Below are positions 38,704 through 46,415 of a stretch of 46,804 nt of DNA, one piece after another. This DNA is from Candidatus Magasanikbacteria bacterium GW2011_GWA2_37_8 (GTDB lineage: Bacteria > Patescibacteriota > Patescibacteriia > Magasanikbacterales > GWA2-37-8), in assembly GCA_000992085.1 (NCBI GenBank), contig LBTN01000003.1, positions 1 to 46,804 on the forward strand, given 5' to 3'. The notes under the pieces are model-generated. The model worked only from the letters and a program-made list of their open reading frames with translations. It did no database searches and was not told the DNA's origin. How positions within the stretch are numbered: the first letter of the stretch is position 1; the number at the start of each line of letters is the position of its first letter. The translations under genes were made by a program, and so were the position numbers.

Positions 38704-38732
38704 ATTATAGCGTAAAATGGGGTTGGTGTCAA
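38704..38732 (-). promoter_or_regulatory. Consensus sigma70 promoter of rpsA.
   Basis: On the - strand: TTGACA (38727-38732), exactly 17 nt, TATAAT (38704-38709). Confidence 0.7.
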
Positions 38733-38764
38733 GGGTGGGGGGGGGTGTGGGGGGGGTGACCCCC
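38733..38764. repeat. G-homopolymer cluster (GGG-T-G9-TGT-G8-TGA-C5).
   Basis: G9 lies at 38737-38745 and G8 at 38749-38756, followed by C5 at 38760-38764. The cluster sits between the RT stop codon and the rpsA -35 box. It is exceptional for this AT-rich window. Confidence 0.9.
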
Positions 38765-38804: not shown

Positions 38805-39983
38805 TTAATTACTCCATAACCAATATTCTCCTAACAATTCCTTTTTTGTGCTCTGCCCATAACCGTGCTGTAACAAACCCAAATAAGATTGCAAAGTTTC
38901 AAAAGTTGGGTTTTGTTTTATTCTTCGTAACATTCTTTTTTTCGTAACCTTTCTTAAAATATGATAATTTGAAAAATATACCCAACCCAAAAAATCAACA
39001 CCAGAAAATATAGTTCGTAAAAATATTTTATTAGGATGCAAAGTTAATTTTAATTTCTCATTTAAAAAATTATCTGCTTTGGGTATTAAATTTTCTAAAT
39101 ATTTTTTATCAGTAGATAAAAATACAAAATCATCGGCATAGCGGATATAATGTTTAACTTTTAATTTGTGCTTAACAAATTGGTCAAATACATTCATATA
39201 AACATTGCTAAATAGTTGTGAAGTAAGGTTACCGAGAGGCAAACCGATTTTACATTTGTCATCCCCGCCCCCACCTTCGTGAGGGTAAACTCCGGCAGAA
39301 TCCAGTGCTTGATTCCCGTTTTCACGGGAATAACAGTTCGTGTGATAACTCTCAACAATATTCTTTAACAACCACACAATATCCTTATCTGGAATATACC
39401 CGTCTAAAATATCCAACAAAATTTGATGATCAATACTGGCAAAAAATTTTCTAATATCACATTTTAAAACCCAACAAGTGCAGTGTTTGTTTTTACTAAC
39501 TTTGTTAAATAGTTCTTTAAATTTATTTAATGCTTTATGTAAACCTTTTTCTTTTCGGCATGAAAAAGAATCAACAATAAAAGTTTTATCAAAAAATGGA
39601 TACAAAATACGATAAACAGCGCGGTGAAGCAAACGATCGCGGACACTGGCTTTGTGAATATGCCGACGTTTGGGATCGTTGATATAAAAACTTTTGTAGC
39701 CACCGTGATCATAAGTTAAATGATCATAAGTTAAATTGACCAAATCATCATGAAGCTCTACAATATTATCCATTAGGTCGCCACTAAACCGCAAAACATC
39801 ACGCCGATTTTTCTTACCCACGATAAATTCATCCCAAGCCAAGGATAAATTTTCTATACTAACAATATCTTTATACCTATGACTCAATTTTTTTCGACTA
39901 CGAATCTTGTAACCCCCCCCCTGCAAAATACTACCGAAATTCCCATTTTGAATATATTCAAAGAGGCTTATTTGTTGTGGCAT
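38805..39983 (-). CDS. DGR reverse transcriptase.
   Basis: 392 aa. RT motifs: DPKRRHIHKASVRDRLLHRAVY (motifs 1-2), CDIRKFFASIDH (motif 3), GLPLGNLTSQLFSNVYMNVFD (the DGR-type [LIV]GxxxSQ motif 4) and IRYADDFVFL (the YADD catalytic box). It lacks a maturase/En domain and sits next to the TR/VR pair. Confidence 0.9.
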   Translation of the reverse strand: MPQQISLFEYIQNGNFGSILQGGGYKIRSRKKLSHRYKDIVSIENLSLAWDEFIVGKKNRRDVLRFSGDLMDNIVELHDDLVNLTYDHLTYDHGGYKSFYINDPKRRHIHKASVRDRLLHRAVYRILYPFFDKTFIVDSFSCRKEKGLHKALNKFKELFNKVSKNKHCTCWVLKCDIRKFFASIDHQILLDILDGYIPDKDIVWLLKNIVESYHTNCYSRENGNQALDSAGVYPHEGGGGDDKCKIGLPLGNLTSQLFSNVYMNVFDQFVKHKLKVKHYIRYADDFVFLSTDKKYLENLIPKADNFLNEKLKLTLHPNKIFLRTIFSGVDFLGWVYFSNYHILRKVTKKRMLRRIKQNPTFETLQSYLGLLQHGYGQSTKKELLGEYWLWSN

Positions 39984-40286
39984 AAATTTTTACCCCATTT
40001 GCCACGCCTGTCACGCTACACTTTGGGAGTTAAGATAGATAATTTATTTTTAGAAATTTTGGAAATTACTTTAATCGCCAAATACACCAAACATAATGAA
40101 AAATTAAGCTTTTTGCAAGAGATAAGTCGCAAGTTGGATAACTTAAAATTTTTTGTAACATTACTTAAAGAAGCACAGGGATTAGACGCTAGTAAATATG
40201 GGCAATTGGCACCAAAATTGGTTAATAGTGGCAAAATGCTAGGCAAGTGGATACAAAACCTTCAACAACAAACTCCTGCCAATTAA
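39879..40286 (+). CDS. avd: Avd-like accessory variability determinant (four-helix-bundle protein), encoded on the strand opposite to RT, TR and the target.
   Basis: 135 aa and helical. The layout parallels Bordetella phage BPP-1 Avd as I recall it (LPRLSRYTLGVKIDNLFLEILEITLIAKY ... KLDNLKFFVTLLKEAQ ... SGKMLGKWIQNL). The ATG at 39879 is the only upstream ATG, which makes the gene overlap the RT 5' end by 105 nt on the opposite strand. Confidence 0.75.
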   Translation: MTQFFSTTNLVTPPLQNTTEIPILNIFKEAYLLWHKFLPHLPRLSRYTLGVKIDNLFLEILEITLIAKYTKHNEKLSFLQEISRKLDNLKFFVTLLKEAQGLDASKYGQLAPKLVNSGKMLGKWIQNLQQQTPAN

Positions 40287-40296
40287 GACAGGAGTT
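40271..40296. other. 8-bp hairpin straddling the avd stop codon, immediately 3' of TR in the - sense.
   Basis: AACTCCTG (40271-40278) pairs with CAGGAGTT (40289-40296) around a 10-nt loop that contains the avd TAA. On the - strand it is followed by TGTTGTTGAAGGTTTTG. Confidence 0.6.
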
Positions 40297-40305
40297 AAGA
40301 AGAAA

Positions 40306-40431
40306 CTGGCTGCACGCGAACCGACCGTTGTCGTTCCAGTCGTTGCCGACCCAGTTGAAGTTGACGACCAACCGACCACCGTTACGGTAGAGGTACGGCA
40401 CGTAGAGGTTGCCGTTCGGGTTACGCAAAAT
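40306..40431 (-). repeat. DGR template repeat (TR).
   Basis: It aligns without gaps to 40775-40900, at a constant offset of 469. All 16 mismatches have T on the + strand here (A on the - sense strand). It carries nine AAC codons in the frame of the target gene. Confidence 0.9.
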
Positions 40432-40663
40432 ATGCAAAATACCTTCTGTAACACCACCCTTTGAATACTCTTGGGGTTGAATTGTATTTGGAGACTTAAT
40501 CTCCCTAGTATCCCGCACCGAGTGTCTTCATTAAAACATTTTATTCTTGCTCTGCAGCAAACCTTGGCCAACCGCATTCTGAAAAATAAAATGGCGAGAT
40601 TCTACACGCACAAGCCAATAGCCGGTGCAGTGTCTGTAAAATCTGAATTTAGTTTATCAAAAT

Positions 40664-40703
40664 TAAACAAAAAAGCAAAGGGCCGCATCCGAAGATGCGA
40701 CCC
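40664..40703 (-). terminator. Intrinsic terminator of the DGR target gene.
   Basis: The - strand reads GGGTCGCATC-TTCG-GATGCGGCCC (a UUCG tetraloop) followed by TTTGCTTTTTTGTTT. Confidence 0.6.
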
Positions 40704-40759
40704 TGATGAACCCGAGGACCGGACAGACGACACCGCGAAGTGCCAAGTGTCCGAGTGAC

Positions 40760-41365
40760 CTAGGGTCTGGACGACTCGCTGCACGCGAACCGACCGCGGT
40801 CGCGCCAGTCGCAGCCGACCCAGTCGAAGAAGACGACCAACCGACCACCGTCACGGTAGAGGTACGGCACGCAGAGGCGGCCGTCCGGGCTACGCAAAAC
40901 GGTGCCGGGCAGTGGGATGTAGGACACCCCATTGAACTCGGCGGAGAGTTCGTCCTGCTCGTGGACGATGCGCTTGCCGTCGGACAAGCCCAGGTTACCC
41001 TGGAGCTCTACGGCGCGCTTGCGCATCTTGTCGGTGTTGATCCAACCCCCGTCGCCGTTCTTGAGATACGACACGGGGCGTAGATCGGCCGTCTTGAACT
41101 GCGACGGCTCGACATCCTCGCCCTTCACCACCGTCCAGTTGGCGGGAATGAGGTCGGCAGCGAGACGTTGGGAGGGGGACAATGCGTCGGCCGCTTTGTT
41201 ATCGACGATCACCTGGGCAATCCTGTCGGGCAGGTCGGGATCGGTGAGGATACGACGGAAGTCGTCGTCACCACCGCCGAGCTTCAGCACCGCGTCCACG
41301 ATCTTTCCCCAGATCTGGAACACGATCCCGATCGCGGACAGAAACTCGCTCTTTTTTCTGGCCAT
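40760..41365 (-). CDS. DGR target (variable) protein, 201 aa, with the VR at its C-terminus.
   Basis: The ORF has a strong SD (AAGGGAGG, 6 nt before the ATG). The C-terminus ...LRSPDGRLCVPYLYRDGGRLVVFFDWVGCDWRDRGRFACSESSRP corresponds to the TR-encoded LRNPNGNLYVPYLYRNGGRLVVNFNWVGNDWNDNGRFACSQ. It is GC-rich: 39/60 at 40801-40860 and 36/60 at 41041-41100. Confidence 0.85.
   Translation of the reverse strand: MARKKSEFLSAIGIVFQIWGKIVDAVLKLGGGDDDFRRILTDPDLPDRIAQVIVDNKAADALSPSQRLAADLIPANWTVVKGEDVEPSQFKTADLRPVSYLKNGDGGWINTDKMRKRAVELQGNLGLSDGKRIVHEQDELSAEFNGVSYIPLPGTVLRSPDGRLCVPYLYRDGGRLVVFFDWVGCDWRDRGRFACSESSRP
40775..40900 (-). repeat. DGR variable repeat (VR), including a GC-rich IMH-like invariant 3' end.
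   Basis: See the TR entry. The invariant 19-nt GC-rich stretch (+ strand GCTGCACGCGAACCGACCG, 40778-40796, matching 40309-40327) lies at the 3' end in the - sense. TR/VR homology stops right after it. Confidence 0.9.
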
Positions 41366-41511
41366 GACTCGCCTCCCTTGGTGTATGGCATACCTTCCGT
41401 CTACGCAACCTGCGCCGACATAAGGTTCGCCAACCTAGCTGGTTTCCCAGCTTTCTTTCTGTATAATTTAGCTTAAATTAGACAAAAAGAAAAGTAGAAA
41501 ACAACGACTTA

Positions 41512-41540
41512 CTATAGCATATTTTTGTACTTTTGTCAAG
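41512..41540 (-). promoter_or_regulatory. Sigma70-type promoter of the DGR target gene.
   Basis: On the - strand: TTGACA (41535-41540), 17 nt, TATAGT (41512-41517). A second TTGACA lies 11 nt further upstream (41546-41551), inside the direct repeat TTTTGTCAAGG x2. Confidence 0.55.
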
Positions 41541-42776: not shown

Positions 42777-45700
42777 ATGCAAGATAAAATCGAATTACCA
42801 AAGGGGTCTATCGGCAAACTAACTGCCACGCCACTTGTAGATGAAATTAAACAATCGTATTTGGAATATGCCATGAGTGTTATTATTTCTCGTGCTTTGC
42901 CAGATGTACGCGATGGCCTTAAACCGGTGCACCGTCGTATTCTTTATGCCATGTTTAACATTGGCCTCCGCCACACTGCCAAATACCGCAAATCTGCTCA
43001 TGTAGTCGGTGAGGTGATGGCCAAATACCACCCTCATGGTGATGCCGCTATCTACGACTCTATGGTTCGCATGGCCCAAGATTTTTCTATGCGCGAACAA
43101 TTAGTAGATGGACAGGGTAACTTTGGTTGTTTTACAAAAGACACTAAAGTTAAATTAACCGACGGACGCAATTTAAGTTTTGAAGATTTGATCAAAGAAC
43201 ACCAACAAGGAAAAAAGAATTATACTTATACTGTTAATGGTGCTGGTTTAATTTCGGTGGCTGAAATTATCAACCCAAGATTAACCAGAAAAAATGCTGA
43301 AATTATTAAAGTAGTTTTAGACAATGATGAAGAAATCAGATGTACCCCTAATCATTTATTCATGTTAAGAGATGGCAACTATTTGGAAGCCAAAGATCTA
43401 AAACCAAAAACTTCATTAATGCCGCTTTACGAAAGAATGTCTGAAACAACCGACAGATTAAACCGAGCTGGATACACTTTGATATTTCAAAATAAAACTA
43501 AAGAATGGATGCTGGCTCACCATTTATCAGATAATTTTAATTTAAGTAATCATAAATATAGCAAGACAGATGGGAGAGTGCGACATCATAAGGATTATAA
43601 TAAATTAAACAATAGCCCAGAAAATATTCAAAGAATGAATTGGGGCGAACATTGGAAAACACATTACGAACACGCTTCAAAAATGCACCAAAATGAAGAT
43701 TACAAAAAAAGCATTGCTTTAGGACGAGAAGAATTTTGGGCTAACCCAGAAAATCGAAAAAAATATTCAGAAAATTTAAAATTAAGAAATATAAAAAATT
43801 GGGAGAACCAAACCTACCGAGAAAAAATGATTGCCGGATTAAGCCGTATAAATAAAGAATACATTTTAAATCATCCAGAAAAAAGATTAGAATTTGCTGA
43901 ACGTGGATCAAAAACTTTAAAGAAACTTTGGCAAATTCCAGAATACAAAAAATTATTTAACGAAAAAATATCAGCCGCTAATAAATTGCGAGAAACTAAT
44001 AACACTGGCAAAAAGAAATTCCTAAATGTATGCAAAGAAGCGTTCCAAAAATATCATACCCTAAATCAAAAATTATACGAGGAACTAAGAAAAATTGTAT
44101 ACCCATACGGAGCGGCCACCACTTGGGCAACTGGATTTGAAAAATATTACACCAATAATCTAGATGTACTATTACAAGATCTAACCAAAAATCACAAAGT
44201 TAAGGAGGTTGAAATATTAAATCAACAAGAAGACGTTTTTGACTTGACTATTGAAGATACCCACAACTTCGCGCTGGCTTCTGGTATTTTCGTACACAAC
44301 TCTATGGATGGTGATAGTGCAGCTGCAATGCGTTATACCGAGGCTCGGTTAAAAGCGGTGGCCGAAGAAATGTTGTTTGATATTGAAAAAAATACGGTTA
44401 ATTTTATTCCTACTTACGACGGTTCGCACAACGAACCAACTGTACTCCCAGCCAAACTGCCAAACTTACTGTTAAACGGTACTATGGGTATTGCGGTTGG
44501 TATGGCTACTTCTATTCCACCACACAATTTACGCGAATTATGCGATGGTGTAATAAAATTAATTGAAGAACCAAAATCTACTGTAGAAGATTTGGGTGAA
44601 ATTATTAAAGGCCCCGACTTCCCTACTGGTGGTATTATCTATAACAAAAAAGATATCATGACTGCCTATGCCACTGGTCGTGGCGGGGTGGTGATGCGCG
44701 CTCGCGCCGAAATTCAAGAAGGTCGTGCCGGTTCTTATCAAATTGTTGTTACCGAAATTCCTTATCAAGTAAACAAAGCCGAAATGATTGAAAAAATTGC
44801 GACTTTGGTGCAAGAAAAAAAGATGGAAGGCATTCGTGATTTACGCGACGAATCCAACAAACACGGCGTACGCATTGTAATTGATCTTAAAAAAGATGCC
44901 TACCCACAAAAAGTTTTAAATCAACTTTACAAGCAGACTGCCCTTCAAACCGCCTTCCATACCAATATGTTGGCATTGGTAGATGGTATCCAGCCACGTG
45001 TGCTAAATCTCAAAATTATTTTGGAAGAATTTATTAAACATCGCCAAGTAATTATTCGTCGCCGTACCGAATTTGATTTAGAAAAAGCCAAAGATCGTGC
45101 TCATATTTTGGAAGGTTTGAAAATTGCTTTAGATAAAATCGATTTAATAATTGCCACCATTCGCAAATCCAAAGATAAAGATGAAGCCAAAATAAATTTA
45201 ATGAGTAAATTTAAATTTACCGAAAAACAAACTTTGGCAATTTTAGAAATGCGCCTACAACAATTGGCCAATTTGGAAAGACAAAAAGTAGAAGACGAAT
45301 TAAAAGAGAAAAAAACAATTATTAAAGAATTGGAATTAATCTTATCTTCCGAATCAAGAATTTTAAAAATTATTAAAACCGAAACTGCTGAATTGCGTGA
45401 TAAATATGGTTCGGATCGTCGTACTCAAATTGTCACCCGTGGTGTTCAAGAATTTACCACCGAAGATCTTATTCCAAACGAACCTACCATCATCATGACC
45501 ACCACTGATGGGTATATCAAACGCTTGCCGCCAGATACTTTTAAACAACAATCTCGCGGTGGCAAAGGTGTAATTGGAGTAACCACCAAAGAAGAAGAAT
45601 CTGTAGCCGAACTTCTAACTGCCAATACTCACGATAACATTTTGTTCTTTACTAATCGTGGCCGCGTATTCCAATTAATGGCCTACGACTTACCACAAGG

Positions 45701-46415
45701 CAGCCGCACAGCCAAGGGCCAAGCTTTGGTAAACTTCTTACAACTTGCTCCAAACGAACGCGTTACTGCCCTACTCTCGTTGGCCGATACTGCTCAAACC
45801 AAATTCTTGGTAATGGTAACCACCAAAGGTGTAATTAAGAAAACTGCTTTAGAAGATTTTGCTAATGTTCGCCGCAGTGGTTTGATAGCCCTTAAATTAA
45901 AACTTGATGATAATTTAGAATGGGTAAAACCAACTAGTGGTGTAAGTGACGTAATGATTGCTACTAAAAAAGGCATTGCCATTCGCTTTAAAGAAAGCAA
46001 CGTGCGCCAGATGGGCCGCACTGCTTCGGGTGTACGCGGCATTCGCTTGCACGCCAACGATGAAGTAATTGGTATGGATGTGGTAGACACCAAAAACAAA
46101 AGTTTAGAATTCTTTACTATTGGAGAAAATGGCGTGGGCAAACGCACTCCACTAGCTGAATACAAAACTCAGGGCCGTGGTGGCAGCGGTATCAAAACTG
46201 CCAATGTAACAGAAAAGACTGGCAACATTGTGCAGGCACGCGTGGTAGACGGAGTGGATATGAACGACCACGACATTGTAATTATGTCTACCAAAGGCCA
46301 AGTAATTCGTATGCCATTTAAATCCATTGCCACTTCTGGTCGTGCCACCCAGGGCACTCGCCTCATGCGCTTTAAAGAAGATGGCGATAAAGTGGTGAGT
46401 GTGACGATATTGTAA
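42777..46415 (+). CDS. gyrA: DNA gyrase subunit A, interrupted by an intein.
   Basis: GyrA blocks: YAMSVIISRALPDVRDGLKPVHRRILY, KYHPHGDAAIYDSMVRMAQDF, the active-site AAMRYTEARL, and C-terminal beta-pinwheel repeats. It is 1212 aa, against roughly 820 for the extein alone. Confidence 0.95.
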   Translation: MQDKIELPKGSIGKLTATPLVDEIKQSYLEYAMSVIISRALPDVRDGLKPVHRRILYAMFNIGLRHTAKYRKSAHVVGEVMAKYHPHGDAAIYDSMVRMAQDFSMREQLVDGQGNFGCFTKDTKVKLTDGRNLSFEDLIKEHQQGKKNYTYTVNGAGLISVAEIINPRLTRKNAEIIKVVLDNDEEIRCTPNHLFMLRDGNYLEAKDLKPKTSLMPLYERMSETTDRLNRAGYTLIFQNKTKEWMLAHHLSDNFNLSNHKYSKTDGRVRHHKDYNKLNNSPENIQRMNWGEHWKTHYEHASKMHQNEDYKKSIALGREEFWANPENRKKYSENLKLRNIKNWENQTYREKMIAGLSRINKEYILNHPEKRLEFAERGSKTLKKLWQIPEYKKLFNEKISAANKLRETNNTGKKKFLNVCKEAFQKYHTLNQKLYEELRKIVYPYGAATTWATGFEKYYTNNLDVLLQDLTKNHKVKEVEILNQQEDVFDLTIEDTHNFALASGIFVHNSMDGDSAAAMRYTEARLKAVAEEMLFDIEKNTVNFIPTYDGSHNEPTVLPAKLPNLLLNGTMGIAVGMATSIPPHNLRELCDGVIKLIEEPKSTVEDLGEIIKGPDFPTGGIIYNKKDIMTAYATGRGGVVMRARAEIQEGRAGSYQIVVTEIPYQVNKAEMIEKIATLVQEKKMEGIRDLRDESNKHGVRIVIDLKKDAYPQKVLNQLYKQTALQTAFHTNMLALVDGIQPRVLNLKIILEEFIKHRQVIIRRRTEFDLEKAKDRAHILEGLKIALDKIDLIIATIRKSKDKDEAKINLMSKFKFTEKQTLAILEMRLQQLANLERQKVEDELKEKKTIIKELELILSSESRILKIIKTETAELRDKYGSDRRTQIVTRGVQEFTTEDLIPNEPTIIMTTTDGYIKRLPPDTFKQQSRGGKGVIGVTTKEEESVAELLTANTHDNILFFTNRGRVFQLMAYDLPQGSRTAKGQALVNFLQLAPNERVTALLSLADTAQTKFLVMVTTKGVIKKTALEDFANVRRSGLIALKLKLDDNLEWVKPTSGVSDVMIATKKGIAIRFKESNVRQMGRTASGVRGIRLHANDEVIGMDVVDTKNKSLEFFTIGENGVGKRTPLAEYKTQGRGGSGIKTANVTEKTGNIVQARVVDGVDMNDHDIVIMSTKGQVIRMPFKSIATSGRATQGTRLMRFKEDGDKVVSVTIL
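43128..44300 (+). mobile_element. GyrA intein (391 aa) with an HNH-type homing-endonuclease insert.
   Basis: The extein junction is GQGNFG|CFTKDTKVKLTDGRNL ... DTHNFALASGIFVHN|SMDGDSAAAMRY. It has Cys1, block B CTPNH, terminal HN and a +1 Ser. The internal RVRHHKDYNKLNNSPENIQRMNWGEHWKTH is an HNH motif. Repeated W-x-NPE-x-R-x-K-x-S-like DNA-binding motifs follow. Confidence 0.9.

Follow-up and report, generated by a model that had tools for sequence, protein, structure and literature searches.

A chromosomal diversity-generating retroelement in a Magasanikbacteria genome and a conserved structured RNA leader 5' of its template repeat

The stretch of DNA analysed here (hereafter the window) comprises 46,804 nucleotides (nt) of Candidatus Magasanikbacteria bacterium GW2011_GWA2_37_8 (assembly GCA_000992085.1, contig LBTN01000003.1, positions 1 to 46,804), and we are highly confident that its region 38805-41540 constitutes an intact, chromosomal diversity-generating retroelement (DGR) of a lineage of the Patescibacteria, also known as the candidate phyla radiation (CPR). 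In the DGR of Bordetella phage BPP-1, a complex of reverse transcriptase (RT) and Avd reverse-transcribes the RNA of a template repeat (TR) and misincorporates opposite adenines, and the resulting cDNA replaces the variable repeat (VR) of a target gene. The initial annotation of the window, made from its letters alone, had interpreted the region as a DGR with an adenine-restricted TR/VR pattern, and this interpretation is supported, all sequence-level hallmarks of such an element being present. As a DGR the locus adds little, since Patescibacteria are already known as the richest cellular reservoir of such elements and their short targets devoid of recognisable domains have been noted before. 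Its interest lies in features at the level of the class: a leader RNA that brackets TR, an anomalous GC content at third codon positions (GC3) of the target gene, an array of repeats after VR and a poly-G tract. The components of the element are the following, each with its basis in brackets.

40760-41365, minus strand: target (variable protein) gene, 201 amino acids (aa), 63% GC, GC3 0.83 (open reading frame (ORF), composition, family search, AlphaFold2 model with a predicted local distance difference test score (pLDDT) of 93.8)
40778-40900, minus strand: VR, codons 156-196 of the target gene (repeat alignment, codon analysis)
40778-40796, minus strand: invariant GC-rich block of 19 nt at the 3' end of VR, resembling an initiation of mutagenic homing (IMH) site, with an identical TR copy at 40309-40327 (alignment)
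40309-40431, minus strand: TR (repeat alignment, codon analysis)
39879-40286, plus strand: avd, antisense to TR and RT, with the coordinates of the maximal ORF, although the gene may begin only after a poly-C tract (ORF, Pfam, NCBIfam, PHROG)
38805-39983, minus strand: DGR reverse transcriptase, maximal ORF of 392 aa, with a likely start near TTG 39887 (ORF, profile matches, start analysis)

Adenine-specific divergence of the repeats

A repeat scan of the window places a direct repeat of 126 nt within the region (40305-40430 and 40774-40899, spacing 469, identity 87%). Compared base by base, TR and VR keep a constant offset of 469 nt free of indels, and they differ at 16 of 123 positions, each of which carries T on the plus strand of TR, i.e. 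A in the minus-strand sense. These figures of the initial annotation are borne out, and a recount agrees with its 25 TR adenines, 16 of them substituted. The substitutions comprise ten A to G, three A to C and three A to T, and by chance all 16 mismatches would coincide with the 25 adenines among 123 positions with a hypergeometric probability of 4.3e-14. VR had been placed at the end of the 201-aa ORF, where it indeed lies in frame. A comparison of codons reproduces the further changes claimed: all nine AAC codons of TR are altered in VR (to S, D, R, D, F, D, C, R and R), TAC has become TGC and ATT has become GTT. Besides the nine AAC codons, seven other TR codons contain adenine and are mutable, and a stop codon is unreachable by adenine mutation from any of these 16 codons. 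The 15^9 (3.8e10) variants calculated earlier are correct for the AAC codons alone; when all 16 adenine-containing codons are counted the protein repertoire rises to 6.3e14.

The 19-nt block CGGTCGGTTCGCGTGCAGC is identical in the two repeats, as had been stated, and the first non-adenine difference is found one base 3' of it, at 40308/40777, with C in the sense of TR and G in VR. Beyond 40308 the flanks of both repeats share AGT and then diverge. The 3' boundary appears to display the asymmetry typical of IMH and IMH* sites, and the same boundary pattern is seen in related loci. The locus is not an assembly artefact, as a Logan assembly of SRR3309152, made independently, matches it with 100% identity across 2,646 nt that include the target gene, TR, avd and RT.

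Reverse transcriptase and Avd

The RT ORF matches Pfam RVT_1 and PHROG 1423 (E 5e-98). Its best solved relative is the RT of the Bordetella phage, bRT (8ub7, E 2.8e-30), retron and group II RTs following at 1e-12 or weaker. In the alignment with bRT the LGNLTSQ motif falls on IGSLTSQ and YADD on YMDD, and to judge from these sequence relations the RT is of DGR type. The initial annotation had named both motifs correctly, but it used an ATG start, and the real start is probably downstream. The comparison with bRT also reveals a GC-richer insertion in the RT, between two aligned blocks (residues ~213-245, window 39200-39300, …NCYSRENGNQALDSAGVYPHEGGGGDDKCK…).

An Avd-like ORF had likewise been reported, and profile matches corroborate the homologue; its strand, which the initial annotation left unmentioned, is the plus strand, opposite TR, VR and RT. 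It scores 40.2 bits against Pfam bAvd (cut-off 40), reaches 2e-14 with the PHROG family 'Avd protein of DGR', and matches NCBIfam DivGenRetAVD with E 1.4e-15 and 57 bits (cut-off 80).

Related loci

A scan with the RT, covering one genome per GTDB species, yielded 38 related loci, nearly all in metagenome-assembled genomes of Patescibacteria. The closest belong to two genomes titled Candidatus Magasanikiibacteriota (65% and 62% identity) and to one titled uncultured Gammaproteobacteria (62%). In every related locus the gene order is target, VR, ~340 nt, TR, antisense avd and RT. A TR/VR pair of their own, in the same layout, is present in 20 of the 38 loci, with 75-100% of the mismatches on TR adenines (e.g. 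11/11 and 24/26); in these, VR is located ~260-470 nt upstream of TR and TR ~400-500 nt upstream of RT. Wherever avd is detectable (27/27 loci) it lies antisense between TR and RT. As far as the text of Wu et al. (2018, PMC5758913) describes it, this layout most likely corresponds to the published 'B3' architecture, which according to the same text accounts for 90% of CPR DGRs. A cellular DGR clade (clade 2) is restricted to Patescibacteria (Roux et al. 2021, PMC8144416), and CPR DGR targets usually have no recognisable domain (PMC8144416, PMC5758913).

A structured RNA leader 5' of the template repeat

The ~340-nt interval between VR and TR retains 74-82% identity between the window and a related contig, which exceeds the conservation of the target coding sequence. 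In an alignment of 17 loci, a conserved TGnTAnaaT element directly follows the terminator of the target gene, and the sequence between this element and TR folds into a series of helices. The features concerned, all on the minus strand, are listed in the direction of transcription.

40651-40659, minus strand: extended -10 promoter-like element TGATAAACT at the putative head of the TR transcript (TGnTAnaaT, at the same place in related loci)
40433-40633, minus strand: structured RNA leader 5' of TR (alignment A4, RNAalifold, covariance model R1)
40604-40633, minus strand: leader hairpin P1 with a UACG-type tetraloop (RNAalifold on the 17-locus alignment)
40553-40576, minus strand: leader hairpin P2 with a UACG-type tetraloop (RNAalifold on the 17-locus alignment)
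40519-40532, minus strand: primer-like strand AAUGAAGACACUCG of the leader (conserved AAAUGAAGAnACUYG after an A-rich linker)
40507-40518 with 40433-40444, minus strand: P3, a long-range helix of 12 bp whose 3' strand ends one base before TR
40490-40504, minus strand: P4, a short hairpin inside P3 (RNAalifold)
40478-40489, minus strand: conserved A-rich single strand AAAUAcGAUaCA inside P3 (alignment)
40456-40477, minus strand: P5, a stem-loop inside P3 (RNAalifold)
40297-40309, minus strand: strand CCAGUUUCUUCUU at and just after the TR 3' boundary, which pairs with the leader at 40519-40532 (anchored duplex tests, minimum free energy (MFE) fold)
40271-40296, minus strand: 10-bp hairpin and U-rich run directly after TR, which may terminate the TR RNA and/or serve as a stem-loop for Avd and which overlaps the avd stop codon (prediction, homologues)

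The structure was scored on a MAFFT alignment of the 17 loci that is blind to structure. Pairing is retained in 92% of the cells, compared to 39-47% when the partners are slid, compensatory changes are found in 33 of 38 pairs, and none of 500 shuffles scores as well. The covariance model R1, which encompasses the P3 domain, finds one match each in 27 of 41 sources, on the RT strand and including ten loci outside model building, and two further loci, reached via the target protein, also match once each. All 22 pairs modelled in R1 are compensatory. The leader is moreover tied to the repeat in its position: in all 22 loci that have both features, the 3' end of the R1 match lies -3 to +5 nt from the start of TR/VR homology and P3 ends 1-9 nt before TR. 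Rfam, searched at gathering and at permissive thresholds, gave no family over the leader, TR or the spacer. A literature search, outside Paul et al. (2017) and the supplements of Wu et al., which it did not cover, returned no description of a structured leader 5' of TR in CPR DGRs, nor of an excess of GC3 in DGR targets, of CTYGG repeats after VR or of a poly-G tract at RT and avd.

The second duplex, between the primer-like strand and the 3' boundary of TR, was assessed by tests anchored at the boundary, as an unconstrained search of the leader strand against 145-nt flanks is noisy in the AT-rich antisense-avd sequence. Cognate pairs of strands reach a duplex energy of -9.1 kcal/mol compared to -7.1 for non-cognate pairs (permutation p 2e-4), and in a fixed 14-nt register 78% of the cells pair, compared to 70% for non-cognate and 45% for slid partners (p <5e-5). 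In locus L007 the purine-rich and pyrimidine-rich strands are exchanged, and compensatory changes in this duplex occur in L008, L012, L015 and L017. Folding of the predicted 384-nt RNA as a single sequence likewise recovers the duplex in the MFE structure (z = -3.9). The non-adenine TR/VR differences of all loci (40308 in the window) fall within it, as is expected if cDNA synthesis begins just 5' of the duplex. Directly 3' of TR, hairpins of the CUCC...GGAG kind, followed by U-runs, are found in related loci as homologues of the window hairpin, with a compensatory change in L002.

The GC-rich target cassette

The target gene and its untranslated regions (UTRs; ~40660-41440 in total) have a GC content of 63-65%, compared to 36.5% for the window, and hold its GC-richest 600-nt stretch. 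Three further elements accompany the target gene.

41511-41539, minus strand: putative sigma-70-like promoter of the target gene, TTGACA-17-TATAGT, TG-extended (consensus match 11/12)
40712-40765, minus strand: array of ~8-nt repeats of the CTYGG type in the 3' UTR of the target gene, directly after VR and the stop codon, with a putative role in recognition (enrichment)
40679-40704, minus strand: intrinsic terminator of the target gene, with an 11-bp stem and a U-run (predicted)

At third codon positions the target gene has a GC content of 0.83 (adenine (A3) 0.06, thymine (T3) 0.11), compared to 0.27-0.35 for RT, avd, rpsA, ftsH and the gene of a metallo-beta-lactamase (MBL)-fold protein. The GC3 of the non-VR part of the target exceeds that of RT in 18 of 20 related loci (median +0.31, Wilcoxon p 2.7e-5), independently of target family and host GC, and the excess is seen again in further loci. 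Depletion of adenines by DGR mutagenesis was rejected as its cause, T3 being depleted too and the non-VR part and the UTRs being affected, and a recent transfer of a GC-rich target is a misfit with the recurrence across related loci. The contrast recurs across the clade.

The density of CTYGG is 16.5 per kb downstream of VR compared to 1.7 per kb elsewhere (21 loci), a ten-fold enrichment, and the array takes a matching position in most related loci; in L004 the unit ends in CTTGA. In sequence, the repeat unit corresponds to the last bases of the leader's primer-like strand (ACUYGG), and it can base-pair with CRAGU at the 3' boundary of VR. The array may be a recognition element on the target side that replaces the inverted repeat of BPP-1.

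The target protein

The protein encoded by the target gene has no match in Pfam, NCBIfam, PHROG, PADLOC or among the PDB sequences. A word-indexed protein search retrieved only four relatives, whose differences concentrate at the VR positions. A rare family, as these four would suggest, is ruled out by an exhaustive profile hidden Markov model (HMM) search, in which the family comprises 2,993 cluster representatives at E <=1e-3 and 915 at 1e-10, mostly of 140-210 aa; the hypervariability of the family conceals it from word-based searches. The target is accordingly, by sequence, a member of a large family of CPR DGR targets outside the coverage of Pfam. The HMM search against Pfam suggested in the initial annotation gave no match for the target itself. 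Among 82 members of this uncurated family, Pfam matches are absent from 81, and the remaining member hits DUF5701 marginally (E 0.0077). Neither the target nor any of the 82 members matches the Pfam models of FGE-sulfatase, DUF1566 or Mtd type, and ten targets of related loci gave no Pfam match. PDB was searched by sequence and by profile, the queries being the target, the profile of the family and one related target, and returned noise only. Two members of the family stand apart, with no TR, leader or RT in the DNA examined around them. One (L004, 135-767), in which the array of repeats persists, is probably a target that is remote from its element or cut off by the end of the contig, and the other (L051, 3001-3366) also has no array and may be a non-diversified paralogue.

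An AlphaFold2 model built on an alignment of the 82 sequences has a pLDDT of 93.8, an alignment of five sequences having given an unusable 47. The protein is predicted to be helical plus alpha/beta, with an N-terminal helical bundle (residues 7-68) and a C-terminal domain in the order strand 95-98, helices 111-120, 127-135 and 142-146, and strands 149-151, 164-172, 175-182 and 193-196. VR (residues 156-196) would coincide with the last four strands and their loops. In the family alignment the N-terminal helix is amphipathic, unlike a conserved signal peptide. The comparison with C-type lectin (CLec) folds that had been recommended together with the structure prediction proved compatible in the order of the elements, but Foldseek found no significant neighbour: searches against PDB and BFVD gave nothing below E 0.2, and the sole domain-sized matches, to generic C-type lectin-like domains and to the tip domain of a Bdellovibrio fibre, are weak (TM 0.4-0.5, probability <=0.23). 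The modelled order of elements resembles the C-type lectin fold, a resemblance which is not proven. The target ends in G-R-F-A-C-S-E, which resembles the [GA]R[GF][VA]C motif of such proteins and serves as a lead only.

A homopolymer between divergent RT and avd

39913-39921, no strand assigned: C9/G9 homopolymer where avd and RT meet head-to-head (23/34 related loci carry G7 to G12 at this position)

This conserved tract, which differs in length between loci, accounts for 23 of all 30 G/C runs of at least 7 in 242 kb of loci. An ATG (MKIQLxHxY) lies 11-23 nt downstream of the poly-G in most loci, sometimes past an in-frame stop. From the position of the tract and this downstream ATG in the relatives, the poly-G is probably located in a 5' control region that serves both of these divergent genes, RT and avd. 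In the window the maximal ORFs of the two genes overlap head-to-head by 105 nt (39879-39983). The sequences suggest that the real starts of avd and RT are both beyond the homopolymer, in which case a very short divergent control region would remain; by analogy with the relatives, the RT of the window may start near TTG 39887. We hypothesize that the poly-G is a candidate switch of the DGR, operating by phase variation (slipped-strand) or by reiterative transcription.

Proposed mechanism

In BPP-1, as visualized by cryo-electron microscopy, the spacer 3' of TR begins with an Avd-binding stem-loop capped by UNCG, which is followed by a strand that pairs with the 3' end of TR and carries the priming adenosine, and two nt later by a strand that pairs over 11 bp with the immediate upstream flank of TR as the 'stop' duplex; the remainder comprises a short stem-loop, adenosines left unpaired, the 'thumb ring', which is single-stranded, and a long stem-loop that binds bRT (bioRxiv 10.1101/2023.10.23.563531). 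By analogy, the RT-Avd complex of the window would reverse-transcribe a TR-containing RNA with errors opposite adenines, and the cDNA would replace VR and rewrite the last ~40 residues of the target, modelled as the C-terminal beta-strands of a small alpha/beta domain. The TR RNA may be a discrete transcript of ~385 nt, a notion for and against which we hold the chances to be equal. It would start from the extended -10 promoter just past the terminator of the target gene, continue through a structured leader of ~220 nt and TR, and end at the hairpin and its U-run. The leader strand AAUGAAGACACUCG would form a template:primer-like duplex with the TR 3' boundary, and P3 would act as a 'stop'-like duplex just upstream of TR. 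Both bracketing duplexes are found with covariation support and both have their partner strands 5' of TR, and they would by analogy be the equivalents of the BPP-1 duplexes. We therefore propose, from the covariation and position of the leader, that the spacer module located 3' of TR in BPP-1 has been transposed to the 5' side in CPR elements because the antisense avd occupies the 3' side. More tentatively, and with somewhat less than an even chance, the permuted CPR DGR RNA, a GC3-rich target whose CTYGG marks mimic the primer strand, and an RT/avd pair governed by poly-G would together represent a distinct variant of retrohoming.

Alternative explanations

Several observations speak against these readings. 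With respect to an intact DGR, the same VR is found in both assemblies of the locus, three metagenome contigs of one related element (of nine loci compared) are identical including VR, and a single-protein scan of metagenome contigs disclosed no near-identical strains with differing VR; the one sign of presumed ongoing homing is the complete lack of non-adenine differences in 123 nt. In addition, the start codon of RT is ambiguous and the Avd scores are borderline, at or under the curated cut-offs (40.2 vs 40 and 57 vs 80). With respect to the RNA, the leader:TR 3' duplex depends largely on conserved sequence, non-cognate strands still being 70% paired, two of its positions are systematically mismatched, and the model assigns no priming nucleotide. 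Finally, BPP-1-like elements are reported on the downstream side of TR in CPR DGRs too, by a survey of DGR RNAs confined to the 40 nt before and the 100 nt after TR (bioRxiv 10.1101/2023.10.23.563531), and this keeps the conventional downstream arrangement a live rival.

The identical VRs, in both assemblies and in the three contigs, would fit a recently inactivated or silent relic, in which TR, VR, RT and avd remain and homing no longer takes place, and the conserved homopolymer in the 5' zone of RT and avd could leave such a system off. This is improbable, considering the 16 adenine differences and no other in 123 nt, the intact avd and RT ORF with YADD, and the TR codons that are still proof against stops; identical contigs, for their part, say little, because consensus assemblies hide minority variants. 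The high GC content of 40660-41440 in an AT-rich window might alternatively point to a recent horizontal acquisition or an assembly chimera, with TR and VR as an incidental duplication beside an unrelated RT. To this we attach a very low probability: the independent assembly is identical across both junctions, the GC contrast is found in 18 of 20 related loci from different genomes, a search of 5.8 billion proteins turned up no near-identical target gene from a high-GC genome, and the adenine pattern of mismatches is impossible for an ordinary duplication (4e-14). An RT from a group II intron, a retron or a defence system is practically excluded. NCBIfam models of group II intron RT/maturase (119 bits vs a cut-off of 300), Drt3a, Drt2 and retron RTs are listed among the matches, as are many defence RT models in PADLOC, but all these fall far below the curated cut-offs, and among solved relatives bRT leads by a wide margin. 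Three features are specific to DGRs, namely the SQ signature of motif 4, the Avd next to the RT and the TR/VR pair, and the Rfam search gave neither intron RNA domains nor msr/msd. The most serious competitor, which we still regard as unlikely, concerns the RNA: the element may work as in BPP-1, with a priming and RT-binding spacer downstream of TR (antisense of avd), the leader being a 5' UTR that only stabilizes or regulates. A hairpin does lie immediately past the 3' end of TR, at the site of the Avd-binding stem-loop in BPP-1, the U-run after the window hairpin is weak (UUUGUUGUUG), and the survey describes such stem-loops and upstream/downstream duplexes in DGRs including CPR members. However, the bracket that the leader helices form around TR is exact, the TR 3' boundary is the partner of the primer-like strand, and the order of the leader elements parallels that of the BPP-1 spacer; the sequence past the hairpin is constrained by the coding of avd, and a clear terminator-like U-run follows the hairpin in most relatives. 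We accordingly prefer a spacer module situated 5' of TR.

Genomic setting

The neighbouring genes encode or comprise ftsH, rpsA, an MBL-fold hydrolase, gyrA, thrS, miaA/B and a pilB-like ATPase, housekeeping functions which identify the element as chromosomal and cellular, and the window also holds an RNase P RNA and two tRNAs. At 38704-38732 on the minus strand, rpsA has a perfect sigma-70-like promoter. Between this promoter and the stop codon of RT lies a second G-rich tract (38737-38756, G9-TGT-G8, plus strand), not seen in related loci. The gyrA gene (42777-46415) is interrupted by an intein at ~43155-44300 (Pfam Intein_splicing, residues 127-508 of 1212), with an HNH-like segment in the insert.

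Implications

The leader RNA offers a testable model of priming and stopping for the architecture that dominates CPR DGRs, and its covariance model could be used to mark TR boundaries directly. The GC3 contrast between target and host (~0.8 vs ~0.3) is strong, and the post-VR repeats and the poly-G tract provide two candidate elements of recognition or control. The target family, with ~3,000 clusters, confidently foldable and outside Pfam, lends itself to curation as a new family and to a determination of its fold. If true, the combination of a permuted RNA, a marked target and poly-G control would constitute a distinct mechanistic variant of mutagenic retrohoming in the largest reservoir of DGRs.

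Comparison with known systems

The element shares with that of BPP-1 (mtd-avd-TR-brt) the adenine-specific flow from TR to VR, an RT that carries the IGxxxSQ and YxDD motifs, a homologue of Avd, and a GC-rich invariant block with an IMH/IMH*-type mismatch at the 3' boundary. Helices that bracket TR are likewise common to both, the duplex at the TR 3' end adjoining a ~12-bp duplex with the sequence upstream of TR, and the leader elements follow the same order as in BPP-1 (UNCG hairpins, primer-like strand, P3, P4, A-rich single strand and P5). In contrast to BPP-1, this leader is located 5' of TR, with P3 closed by the chain that continues into TR; the locus is cellular rather than phage-borne, avd sits between TR and RT in antisense orientation, VR is followed by an array of repeats in place of the single GC-rich inverted repeat of BPP-1, and the 201-aa target has no sequence relation to Mtd. 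Compared to the CLec variable proteins (Mtd, Treponema TvpA, nanoarchaeal AvpA and Thermus TaqVP), the target is alike in that VR makes up the C-terminal ~40 residues and in the predicted succession of a strand, two helices and four strands, the first and last strands being near in sequence order, whereas it has no sequence or profile match to any of them. The closest correspondence is with the CPR DGRs, as portrayed by Wu et al. (2018) and Roux et al. (2021): these too are chromosomal and cellular, consist of target, TR, reverse-oriented avd and RT, and diversify a short target with a C-terminal VR and no recognisable domain or membrane segment. Nothing essential differs, and the locus of the window is a further member of this group.

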